Of a stretch of 64,000 bases of DNA, positions 1 to 34,685 are shown in pieces; position 1 is the stretch's first letter, and each line of letters starts with the position of its first letter. The notes under the pieces are model-generated. The model was given only the letters and a program-made list of their open reading frames with translations. It was not told where the DNA came from and searched no databases. Position numbers and translations under genes: made by a program. Origin of the DNA: Eledone cirrhosa (taxonomy: Eukaryota); assembly GCA_964016885.1 (NCBI GenBank), contig OZ024740.1:296794001-296858000 (forward strand), read 5' to 3'.

Positions 1-404
1 GAAGATTCCAGTGTCATAGCAGTAAGGCGTAGGCTACTTACCTCAAAAGTTCATTCGCACTCTTTCCACTAAGTTACTCTTTCTCTCTATCCCTCTCGAT
101 GCAGTCCCTTGCGAATTTCTCACGTAGGCCTGGTGTAGATTTGCACCCAATCCATCTACCCGATGCACATGTCCGCTTTGTATGGCTTTTGGAGGAAGGA
201 GTGACCAGCAGTACGTTGTTCGGTATTATTACGTAAAGGTGTAGCAGAGAATCACGTGTGAACTAACAGCACGGGGGGAAACTGCTTACCTCGAAGATTC
301 ATCCACCATCGTTCTTGTCAATTCTCCGTTTAGTTGGTATTTGTTGGTCTACAGTTAAACGAATGGCGCACAAAGGGTCAATGTTTATTGGCAAGAAGTT
401 TTTT

Positions 405-580
405 TAATAATTGTTTCTACTTTAGGCACAAGGCGAGCAATTAACCAGTACATTACTGGTACTTTATTTCATCGACGCCGTAAGGATGAAAGGCAAAGTT
501 TACCTCGGCGGGATTTGAACTCAGACTGTAAAGGGACGTAACTATGCTAGAAAGCATTGCGTCCAACCCTCTACCGATAC
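405..580 (-). mobile_element. tRNA-derived SINE, 5'-truncated; one copy per array unit, with a second diverged copy near 8495-8610 and equivalents
   Basis: Reverse complement of the SINE at 63325-63510, including the B-box-like GAGTTCAAATCCC and the TTTGCCTTTCATCC body. Confidence 0.8.
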
Positions 581-711
581 TGTAATAAAAGACGGGTTAA
601 AGCGATCAATAATGTATCTGTGTATATATATATATATATATATATATATATATATATATATATATATATATATATAATAAATAACAAAGAACGCCTATAG
701 CATATGCATAT

Positions 712-769
712 CTTTACTTGCTAACATTGTTTCATCCGCACTATAAGTGGGACTCATCAGAGCATAAAG
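712..769 (-). ncRNA. Minimal type I hammerhead ribozyme (3' pLTR)
   Basis: Minus strand reads CUUUAUGCU-CUGAUGA-GUCCCACuuauaGUGcGGAU-GAAA-CaauG-UU-AGCAagUAAAG. Stems I and II pair and stem III is near-palindromic. Confidence 0.88.
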
Positions 770-31026: not shown

Positions 31027-33067
31027 ATATATATATATATATATATATATATATATACACAGATACATATATATGTGTGTGTATGTATGTATATATATAT
31101 GTGTGTGTGTCTGTATGTATGTATGTGTATGTGTATGTATGTATGTATGTGGATAAGGGAGCTTATAGATAGGACAACACACGCTGTCTTTTCGTGGGGT
31201 AAGTTTTTAATTAATTTTTGTATTCTGAAACATCAAAATACAACAATTTTTTGGTCACTGGACTCGGGAATGTCATGACAGAAGTTTGTGGAAGTTGCAC
31301 AAATATTTTCGTATATTTTACCAGGGCAATCCTTATTTATATTTTACATTTTACATTTACTTACATCTCAATATAACATGGCTAAAAAAATTCAAATTTT
31401 GCAAAGAGAAGAAAACTGAACTACATGCATCTCACTGCACACCCCCCCCCCCCCGCCACCACAATTACGTGTACACTCTCTCCCTACCACCACATTTACA
31501 TTTACACACCCTATCTAGACTAAAGTTACCGACCTGTTGTTCAACACTCTACTCTGTGTTGAATGTGTGTGTGTATATATATATATATATATATGTGTAT
31601 GTATATGTGTGTATATACATCACTCAGTCAAACAACCTGATTTCAACCCAAATATCTACAACAACAACACCGGCACTGATGTTTACAGCAACAACAGCTT
31701 CAGAATGAATTGAAATGAACATTTACAACAACCACAGCGGCATCAAACGATAAGAAAAAACAACAAAAAACAAAAAAACTCAAAATATCAAAACACACAC
31801 ACACAACACAACAACAACATCAACTGCCACCACCATCACCACCACCAGCGACCGGGCCTTAAGAAAACAACAAATTTAATAATAATAATTGTTCTGCTTT
31901 TGTGCATTACTGGTGCTCTCTTTTGTTGACTCCGTGGGGATGAAAGGCAAGGTTGACCTCGGCGGGATTTGAGCTCAGAGAGTGGAGAGCCATTGCTTTA
32001 TGCTGTAAAACAATTATAATAATACTGAACTGTAACACGAACGGCTTCAACTATACGAACTCTTGAAAGTCAACAGTTGACATAATCTTGTAATCTTGTA
32101 TCAGTAATGACGGTAATATATATATATATATGTATATATATATATATATATAAATTAACGAGATTCGTATTTCGGATTAGGAATTAACGAAAAACAACTT
32201 CTGAGATGTGTGGCAAGCGCTCAATGATTCAGATGAACCAGTGCTACAACATACGTTAAAGGCCAAACACACTGAGACGATGGTTAAACAATCATCCTCA
32301 CTGCCATAAAAACGACCAAGTAATTCGGGTCAAACCAATAAAAATATATGTGATTGAAAATTTACCCAGACCCCTGGATGATTTGTAAAATCCAGCATTT
32401 GGGTTTCTGCGACTTCTAAATCAAGTACTGTCCGCTTACACAAATGATGTTAGGCTTCTGGTATGATGTTTGAATAAGGAAGCCACTTTTTCAACAGGTT
32501 TTAGTTCGAGTGCTAATTTAAGGAATGACCGTTACCGACGCCACGTGGGGCTCGGCAAGGGAGGCAATCCTTATTTTAGGCGGATGAATTCAGTATGTGT
32601 ATAAAATTGCAAGAATGCAAAACATCACATATATGTGTGTGTGTGTAAGTGAGTAGCGTGTGTGTGTTTGTTTGTATGTATGAGTGCTGGTGTCTGCGCG
32701 CGTATGTATGTGTGTGTGTGCGCGTGTGTGTATATCGTAGGTATAAGTGTCAATAAGTGAGTTTTTTTGTTTTTTATGCGTGGGGACAGAAATAAACGGA
32801 CTGGATGCCCGATCGCGCAGTTAAACCACTGGGAGTGAGGAACCCCTAGCCCTTGTCAGGGCATTCTTCTAGGAGAAGGCATCTCAGGAAACTGGGTTAA
32901 TTCCGACATAAAACCTGCGGCTCAATAGTTACCGATGATGTTGATCTTTTCTTCTTTTCGGGTTATAGCTACTGTCGCTCAGGGAGTGGGTTTGGCTCAG
33001 TGCACAGTCTTTCTTCACTTTAAAAATATTCGTCACGCACAGGCATTGCACGATTGCATTAATTAAT

Positions 33068-33253
33068 TGTTTCTACTTTTGGCACAAGGCCAGCAATTAC
33101 CCAGTGCATTACTGGTACTTTATTTTATCGACCCCGTAAGGATGAAAGGCAAAGTCAACCTCGGCGGGATTTGAACTCAGATCGTAAAGGGACGTAACTA
33201 TGCTGGAAAGCATGGCGTCCGACCCTCTACCGATACTGCCAATCCACCGCCCT
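33068..33253 (-). mobile_element. Full-length tRNA-derived SINE, private to the last array unit
   Basis: Near-identical reverse complement of 63325-63510. Missing at the equivalent site in other units and at ~47930. Confidence 0.85.
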
Positions 33254-33591
33254 TAATAGTGTATTACTGGTCTCCTTGACGGAGCTGCAGTCCTGGATCA
33301 GAAAAAGACCGAGGGATAGCGCTTGGAAACTGGAATATCTTCAGGCGCTCACTGCCCTTTGCCAGCTGGGCACCAGTATCGGTGGAACATCCACCTCGGC
33401 GTTCTATAGAGGACTAGTGGAGGGGAAGAACGACGACGTTCTCGGAGAGATCCTGGGCGTCGAAGAAGATCAGCTGTTTGCTCTCTTCCGGAGAACTTTC
33501 AGCCCAGGGCCTATGGATAACTTCCAAAAATCCCTGGCCTGTCAGTGCTACCGGGGAGCGCTGCCAGTTCTTTTTTTCTCTTTATTTATAA

Positions 33592-34685
33592 CTAGCAGTG
33601 TATCCCGGCATTGCATGGGTAATAGCACCTCCAATGAGAAACCTTTATTTGTGAGTGCCTTTATTTGTAGCTGTCTACGTGCATTGTTCATAGCAATATT
33701 CTTGAGCCCCTTCTTTTCATACCCCTGTTTTGGCCTTTTGGAATAAATGTGAAAGAGAAATTCACAGGTTAAGTTGGCAGAAGATTCCATGGTCATAGCA
33801 GTAAGGCGTAGGCTACTTACCTCAAAAGTTCATTCGCACTCTTTCCACTAAGTTACTCTTTCTCTCTATCCCTCTCGATGCAGTCCTTTACAAATTTCTC
33901 ACGTAGGCCTGGTGTAGATTTTCACCCAATCCATCTACCCGATGCACATGTCCGCTTTGTATGGCTTTTGGAGGAAGGAGTGACCAGCAGTACGTTGTTC
34001 GGTATTATTACGAAAAGGTGTAGCAGAGAATCACGTGTGAACTAACAGCACGGGAGGAAACTGCTTACCTCGAAGATTCATCCGCCATCGTTCTTGTCAA
34101 TTCTCCGTTTAGTTGGTATTTGTTGGTCTACAGTTAGATGAATGCCGCACAAAGGGTTAATGTTTATTGGCAAGAAATGCAACTGGGCTGGCTTGCCTCG
34201 CTTATATTATATATTAAAATAACAGATTAAAGTTTAAGCATAGAATCGCTGCTTTCACCCTTAACGGGGTCATCTGAAACTAAAAAAATCAATCTGTGAA
34301 CGCAGAAGTAAATATTTCGAAAAACGTTGCCACCGAAGGAAAACAGGAAGACGATACTTTGGTTCGTGAAGACGTTCCCTGGCAATGAAGGGAAATAGCA
34401 AACATAATACGTCATCAATGTTCGTCAGAATGTCGTAATGCAGACAGATAGGCATACAGACAGATATTATAAGAGTGCGACGGAGATGGATAACCGGCGC
34501 CTAACACCCATCTAACAACAGAAAATTGAAAAATAAAAGCTGCAGTTAATATCTTTAGACCGCAAGGAATATATAAATGCAAGTTTAAGAATATATAAAT
34601 ACAATCGGAGTAGAAATGTGGATTTGTATAGACTTTACAAAAATGAGGACACGCACACGGATGACTACAGTTTTCTATATATAGA
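33592..34685 (-). mobile_element. Non-autonomous Helitron (~1.1 kb)
   Basis: Minus strand starts A|TCTATATATAG and ends with the hairpin CCCATGCAATGCCGGG followed by ATACACTG-CTAG|T. This gives 5'-TC, 3'-CTAG, an A|T insertion site and no TSD. Confidence 0.75.

Follow-up and report, generated by a model that had tools for sequence, protein, structure and literature searches.

Organization of the locus

Positions 1 to 34685 of the window (the whole stretch of 64,000 nucleotides of Eledone cirrhosa DNA that was analysed) belong to a tandem array of large units with Helitron sequence at both of its ends, which we mapped in the window and in 120 kb fetched upstream of it (Table 1; negative coordinates continue the window leftward). 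Genome searches covered 3.0 Gb of one assembly. The terminus of a hairpin plus CTAG that had been listed in a sequence-only reading of this DNA recurs at exactly 10052, 13359, 16804, 20052, 23342, 26634, 29923, and 33592, and its 15-nt motif has no match in 50 shuffles of the window. That reading was equally right that only the last copy reaches a 5'-TC (at 34685, with an A before it) and that the Helitron match of the remaining copies ends at the equivalent of 34176. Examination of the left end, which it had placed in the adjacent sequence, added 3 further termini for a total of 11, of which 8 are within the window: The array ends at about -14552, extending 14.5 kb into the next window leftward, and the split Helitron is closed by a family-type 3'-CTAG at a distance of 14,552 bp from the left edge of the window. 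With 11 head-to-tail units of ca. 3.3 kb each that are confined to one locus and mixed by recombination, the array is a macrosatellite.

The whole 49 kb contains a single copy of the 5' motif and no CTAG-TC junction. All 12 genome matches to the unit terminus plus flank lie within 86 kb (at most 2 mismatches, one assembly), and a genome search on the same terms found no copies elsewhere of a mobile composite running from TC through the unit to CTAG. It is unlikely that the array is an assembly artefact, given up to 3.3% divergence between units and the independent insertions found in them. Contigs of 4 runs over 33000-36000 gave matches dominated by dispersed repeat families.

Table 1. Features of the Helitron-embedded array and its surroundings, in window coordinates unless a contig is given.
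Feature	Position	Strand	Remark
Split Helitron plus array, whole	G000:C1:296,779,448-296,828,685	-	49,238 bp; mapped in window and 120 kb upstream
Split Helitron plus array, part in window	1..34685	-	5'-TC at 34685
Later long insertion	677..7644	.	in a unit's (TA)n tract; long inverted ends; unrelated to array
Second long insertion	~ -11396 to -5360		in (TA)n tract
Reference unit, complete	27290..30577	.	3288 bp; from comparison of units
Long-subfamily (B) Helitron interior	27290..27654	.	~50 bp plus microsatellite; 236-match junction motif
SINE inserted in B interior	~27302-27472		
DE, dispersed non-coding repeat	27655..29597	+	(ATT)n-type tail
C, third dispersed repeat	~28653-29138		interrupts DE in (TA)n tract
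LINE 3' region, truncated piece	29598..29901	+	97% to 47609-47912
3' flank, 24 nt	29899..29922	.	otherwise present only at the lone long-subfamily copy
Helitron 3' module, 654 bp	29923..30577	-	hairpin plus CTAG; common to short and long subfamilies
Private insert of last copy	30832-31025		
Private SINE of last copy	33059-33252		
Private deletion of last copy	33660-33667		~75 bp, filled with 7 nt copied from close by
Array-type Helitron 3' module of last unit	33592..34102	-	
Likely crossover interval, array-type to resident-type	34103..34137	.	approximate bounds
5' half of short-subfamily (A) non-autonomous Helitron	34138..34685	-	family alleles at module positions 616, 637
Right flank	34686..34724	.	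joined straight to left flank of array in empty-site paralog
Candidate donor 5' end plus microsatellite, long subfamily	38799..39268	+	inverted relative to array; 29-nt TC flank is that of the lone copy
Candidate donor remnant, DE tail joined to LINE piece	47609..48131	-	LINE continues to stop codon near 47151

A dispersed Helitron family with two subfamilies

As the sequence-only reading had supposed, 33592-34685 belongs to a dispersed family of TC...CTAG elements inserted between A and T, with copies elsewhere in the genome sharing its ends. A search with 34177-34685 returned 3151 first-look candidates, 40 of which were scored, and the dispersed ones among these are 90-93% identical. Among 29 dispersed copies of this 1.17-kb family (Non-autonomous Helitron1), the 5'-TC was located by a strict pattern in 17 (preceded by A in 17/17) and the CTAG-type (CTRR) 3' end in 25 (followed by T in 25/25). 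A short hairpin lies ca. 11 nt upstream of the 3' end (predicted at -4.5 kcal/mol for one family copy), and the one empty site compared (C1:293,746,859) restores AT without a target-site duplication. Loci coding for RepHel proteins are abundant (150 Helitron_like_N matches scored), and one of 6 RepHel regions fetched holds a RepHel frame of 1718 amino acids; none of these 6 regions was identified as a coding element with the ends of the 1.17-kb family.

A motif across the 34176 junction has 236 genome matches compared to none for the reversed control, and 28 of 30 such loci fetched keep the same 50 bp plus microsatellite, with the other 2 being altered. Since this motif is dispersed, the family comprises a long (B) and a short (A) subfamily with a common 3' module of 654 bp. 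What had looked like a jump back into the Helitron interior at the equivalent of 34176 was thus not made by the array but is the ordinary interior of the long subfamily. The units belong to B, and the 5' half at 34177-34685 belongs to A. All 30 loci fetched lack the SINE that is present at this junction in the units.

Anatomy of one unit

The array copies of the 654-bp module have a 12-bp deletion and a weakened hairpin, with a predicted fold of -1.7 kcal/mol against the -4.5 kcal/mol of the family copy. The CTAG together with the 24 nt that follow it has 12 genome matches, 11 in the array units and the twelfth in a lone B copy that spans -52522 to -50689, 38 kb to the left. At its left edge, this 24-nt flank meets the LINE piece with a 3-bp microhomology (TTC) in what is the only new junction of the unit, and a three-way comparison found no counterpart of it outside the array. 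The LINE presumably belongs to a Tx1/L1-like clade. The longer frame at 47609-47912 matches Pfam zf-RVT (E 3e-09); the unit's own frame of 140 amino acids is a LINE fragment running into the flank and has no Pfam match. The DE repeat appears to be retroposon-like, and its junction with the LINE has 10 genome matches, of which 9 are array units and one is 47609-48131. In Rfam, one unit and two repeat loci had no match that reached its gathering score; those obtained were all driven by microsatellites, and none was a hammerhead.

About three quarters of each unit consist of repeats other than the Helitron. The sequence-only reading had taken the repeated ca. 2.6 kb for the downstream flank of the last Helitron, but the empty site places the true 3' flank at the left end of the array. 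Instead, the segment likely consists of nested repeats once contained in an inverted copy nearby, together with 24 nt of the sequence flanking that copy.

Ends of the array and the empty site

At C1:293,746,859, 3 Mb away, a paralog of the locus has the two flanks of the array directly joined at A and T. As the flanks are contiguous there, the 49,238 bp fill one Helitron site from a single TC to a single CTAG. Both ends are therefore Helitron sequence, which upholds the earlier view that the array is anchored on a Helitron.

At the right end, the last copy carries 14 of 16 scorable unit-private alleles, all of them up to module position 561 (581 in another scoring). The 2 missing alleles are those of the final two sites, and hence the last copy becomes an ordinary A copy between ca. 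34103 and 34137. Rather than the whole, intact seed for which it had been taken, the last Helitron is a chimera that passes from array alleles to family alleles in this interval, and we infer that its A-type 5' half (34138-34685) is the resident element.

At the left end there is a Helitron 3' end that lacks the 12-bp deletion, is followed by another flank than in the units, and breaks off at module position 374 against a (TA)n tract; it carries 6 of 10 unit-private alleles in patches together with the family 3' end. Its terminal hairpin is now weak (predicted at -1.3 kcal/mol). The left and right Helitron halves complement each other to one element, with the left one being patchy and cut as described. 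A two-base marker of the left end occurs in 3 of 26 family copies and in none of the 7-copy subgroup that holds the right 5' half, and these markers are poorly linked. SINE-SINE recombination, which would have set the left end apart from the Helitron, is not seen where the Helitron 3' end joins the (TA)n tract.

No locus holding the resident Helitron alone was found in the one assembly. In a further paralog (C1:293,878,712), the same nucleotide also holds a Helitron, which might be taken for the resident without the array. However, this is another, chimeric element: It has 3 genome matches and shares with the 5' half in the window only 2 subgroup alleles and no private one.

A candidate donor in an inverted duplication

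The lone B copy lies in a stretch (about -60142 to -45177) that is paralogous to 34847-68398 and inverted relative to it. Its partner is in the latter, with a 5'-TC at 38799 and the same 29-nt flank, and 38799-39268 is 92% identical to the lone copy. The lone copy itself is 92.8% identical to the unit modules, a value similar to that of the inverted arms (91.6-95.7% for the blocks next to it); of the features of the units, it has the 12-bp deletion and the 24 nt as well as 3 of 19 unit-private alleles. For the remnant at 47609-48131, identity to the units is higher (97.0%, compared to 97.6% among the units themselves), and 8 differences are fixed.

In the orientation of the array, the donor arm presents the DE plus LINE remnant, then the microsatellite, and then the 5' end, which is the order that would be expected from an insertion of DE and LINE into the interior of the partner. 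Given such an insertion, the unit would be one contiguous piece of the partner. The module, the SINE, and the 24-nt flank are all absent from the arm that was inspected, so that the partner's gain of SINE and DE plus LINE is a reconstruction that needs a later deletion. Another DE piece at 59174-59864 (93.6% identical to the units and, over its longer part, 93.1% to the family) could be another family copy.

Origin of the array

Given that the flanks are contiguous in the paralog and that the candidate donor is inverted, the first unit would have come from elsewhere rather than from a simple unequal crossover in place. Moreover, both ends change their allele state inside the common module, which indicates homologous recombination with a resident A copy. 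It thus seems probable that the array lies inside one Helitron insertion, with a unit that likely derives from the neighbouring inverted copy and was likely inserted by homologous recombination of the host. The local restriction of the DE-LINE and CTAG plus 24-nt junctions and the predicted order and orientation of the donor remnants support this reading. The resident Helitron likely served as a homology landing pad, which implies no function for the array.

The proposed series of events would begin with the inverted segmental duplication that, as observed, holds two long-subfamily copies (the lone copy and the partner with its 5' end at 38799). The partner would then have acquired the SINE and the DE plus LINE insert in its interior, and a contiguous 3.3-kb piece, reaching from 24 nt past CTAG to within the LINE, would have been closed on the 3-bp microhomology. 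A circle would be the simplest carrier of this piece, but a tandem duplicate at the donor would do equally well. Recombination via the common 654-bp module could next have brought it into a short-subfamily Helitron 4-27 kb away and split the recipient, which for a circle would take a single crossover near module position 600. Subsequent growth to 11 copies, partly visible in the units themselves, may have gone along with mixing by unequal exchange and gene conversion and was presumably followed by the (TA)n insertions. One clean crossover predicts a resident-type left end, and the unit-type patches therefore need two later conversion tracts, a kind of exchange that is frequent in the array. 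A tandem duplicate in the donor that acted by conversion would have the same outcome as a circle, and the two routes are indistinguishable. Of the rolling-circle or eccDNA idea put forward previously, the circle thus stands as the simplest carrier but not the Helitron rolling circle: Concatemers of that kind, recognizable by CTAG-TC junctions or repeated 5' ends, are not indicated by an array with no such junction and one 5' end.

Alternatively, the Helitron transposase could have inserted the whole composite in one event, with one or many units already inside. Replication would have started at a short-subfamily 5'-TC, switched template to the neighbour, bypassed the weakened internal hairpins, and stopped at a family-type CTAG, so that the 49 kb would, improbably, be one giant insertion and the mirror image of described Helitron arrays. 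We regard this as unlikely but possible because no resident-only allele was found. The outline of the array is that of one Helitron insertion with TC and CTAG at A and T and no duplication, RepHel-coding loci are abundant, the array-internal hairpins fold weakly, and the two halves may derive from different family lineages (a weak point). Bypass of the 3' end is known for the Helraiser element, at least from the portions of the accounts cited (PMC4778049, PMC5876387). Yet the terminal hairpin of the left end, where replication should have stopped, is now weak too, and the 5' half of the array does not correspond to the 5' end of the donor, which still stands at 38799. The composite has no copy elsewhere in the genome, and CTAG-TC junctions are missing. 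Template switching by the transposase is not described in those parts of the Helraiser accounts (PMC4778049, PMC5876387). The same portions describe circles that join 5'-TC to CTAG, with the left end being essential, and report aberrant junctions in ca. 50% of circles in one assay (PMC4778049, PMC5876387). With aberrant junctions this common, a non-terminal junction is not strict proof against the transposase. The criteria of Helitron 3' transduction do not describe the array either, given just 24 nt of downstream flank and a short-subfamily 5' end that is not the donor's.

A single template-switching event of the FoSTeS/MMBIR type, generating the new junction and bringing in the first unit at once, with unequal exchange building the array thereafter, appears quite improbable. 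The 3-bp microhomology at the new junction, the proximity and inverted arrangement of donor and recipient, and a region rich in (TA)n breaks and local rearrangements would all suit it. However, entry and exit lie within hundreds of bases of homology where switching on microhomology is unneeded, and this scenario is hard to tell from homologous recombination, differing only in that it has no circle or tandem intermediate. Finally, the origin offered by the sequence-only reading, in which the last Helitron was the seed and read through its 3' end into its own flank before rolling-circle amplification or unequal exchange in place, does account for one 5' end and many 3' ends with identical sequence after each, but is very improbable considering that the empty site assigns the true 3' flank to the opposite, left end of the array, the repeated "flank" likely derives from another copy, the supposed breakpoint is subfamily interior, and the last copy is chimeric.

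Comparison with known arrays

Tandem arrays of Helitrons were reportedly attributed to rolling-circle replication by Xiong et al. in 2016. How a macrosatellite arose can rarely be read, as both the donor and the target tend to disappear; at this locus, probable remnants of the donor, a sister copy of greater age, the sole new junction, the putative crossover at either end, and an empty site are all preserved in one assembly. Recombination with the resident A copy would make the locus a case in which abundant small Helitrons passively seed large arrays as homology landing pads, and Helitron ends on an array are by themselves no evidence of rolling-circle amplification. No sign of function is seen at this single locus, and all of the steps are known processes.

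In the sections of the literature cited, the closest analogue are the new Rsp-like satellite clusters of Drosophila, ascribed to eccDNA reintegration or interlocus conversion (PMC7403614). As described there, these arrays likewise lie inside an older repeat, their first and last pieces make up one whole element, and the circle and conversion routes are inseparable (PMC7403614). Compared to them, our array has a 3.3-kb unit of nested transposons and a Helitron landing pad entered via long homology, and likely donor and empty site are both nearby.

Like Helraiser in the parts of the reports consulted, the Helitron family described here has TC and CTAG ends, a 3' hairpin that could be bypassed when weakened, and an AT target, but Helraiser circles start at the 5'-TC, whereas the unit lacks a 5' end and its junction joins flank and LINE interior (PMC4778049, PMC5876387). 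Plant Helitron arrays ascribed to rolling-circle replication also consist of tandem truncated Helitron pieces between Helitron ends; in the relevant passages, 5' ends are mostly numerous in these and the 3' end is single (PMC12628747), while our array combines a single 5' end with 12 3' ends, and ca. three quarters of each unit are other repeats. Tandem repeats between the ends of a non-autonomous Helitron are further described, in the excerpts cited, for Helitron/Helentron elements of oysters (PMC12628747, PMC7492417) and for arrays in Xenopus (PMC12001565). The units of these arrays are short (121-1996 nt in Xenopus; PMC12001565) and the oyster elements are said in that source to carry arrays around the genome (PMC12628747), in contrast to the single locus and the Helitron 3' end in each unit found here. 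No kb-unit array that splits one Helitron and comes with an empty site was found in the mostly open-access literature covered.

Exchange between units and later insertions

Pairwise divergence among the 11 units, with microsatellites left out, ranges from 0.36 to 3.33%, and identity between units is 97.6%. The lowest value reflects one recent adjacent duplication (0.36%); otherwise, distance and divergence are unlinked (Spearman 0.05, p 0.71). Among the units, 1728 of 4753 site pairs are incompatible, indicating that they recombine, and the earlier caution that unequal exchange might be involved fits this later history of the array well. The insertion at 677-7644, for which Pfam gave no match on two frames, is presumably Penelope-like, a label that we take from its motifs. 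The last copy carries a deletion, a SINE, and another insert of its own (Table 1).

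Helitron insertions in a paralog of the array site and elsewhere

The A|T site that holds the Helitron array is occupied in a second paralog by a distinct, chimeric Helitron, which sits at the very same nucleotide, consists of the 5′ half of an A-type (short-subfamily) element plus a whole element of another family, and has 3 matches in the genome. The same site is empty in a third paralog; this arrangement suggests that Helitrons have struck it two times, independently. A CpG-poor segment containing minisatellites of 50 bp and 52 bp occurs at least four times, with one copy inverted close by, and may be part of a gene cluster.

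Elsewhere in the genome, many near-identical matches to Helitron_like_N lie on one strand of C20 and C27 at spacings of ~100–130 kb, a pattern that hints at tandem repetition of a very large, Helitron-bearing segment. Another locus carries an open RepHel frame of 1718 aa with N-terminal STPR repeats and is a candidate intact autonomous Helitron. Two Helitron modules of the long (B-type) subfamily form an inverted pair, face to face, with a common microsatellite between them.

Changes within the array units

Two long insertions, presumably Penelope-like, arose independently in the ~3.3-kb array units, each in a (TA)n tract of its own. A 194-bp insert, also within a (TA)n tract, contains a near-perfect 120-bp palindrome and has dispersed copies (94–98%) upstream. 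The deletion in the last (rightmost) array copy carries a 7-nt filler copied from nearby sequence; such copying is an expectation for polymerase-theta-type end joining, with which the filler fits.

Repeat C, which interrupts the dispersed non-coding repeat DE within the unit, forms tandem units of ~610 bp at many dispersed sites, usually starts at a (TA)n tract and had no match in Rfam above the gathering score. In five of nine dispersed DE copies (L126–L134), the (ATT)n tail is followed directly by the same LINE 5′ region, which holds an endonuclease-like frame and which we take to be RTE-like; this adjacency suggests a fused element or a common target.

Positions of the features (C1, contig of the window; negative values, leftward of it; L, retrieved locus)
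Feature	Position	Detail
Chimeric Helitron, second paralog	G000:C1:293,877,585-293,878,712	L181, L196
CpG-poor segment copies	window 34686-39268 and 61281-68398; C1:293.74 Mb, 293.87 Mb, 296.73-296.75 Mb	
Minisatellites	window 35740-37535	
Helitron_like_N matches	G000:C20 3.5-5.2 Mb; C27 13-15.5 Mb	
RepHel frame	L185:4157-9310	
Inverted Helitron modules	C1:173,398,149-173,398,815	L061/L062
Long insertion 1	window 677-7644	long inverted termini of 1.8 kb (99%)
Long insertion 2	about -11396 to -5360	L031-L032; long inverted termini of 574 bp (99%)
194-bp insert	window 30832-31025	
Filler at deletion	window 33660-33667	
Repeat C	window 28653-29138	L085-L102
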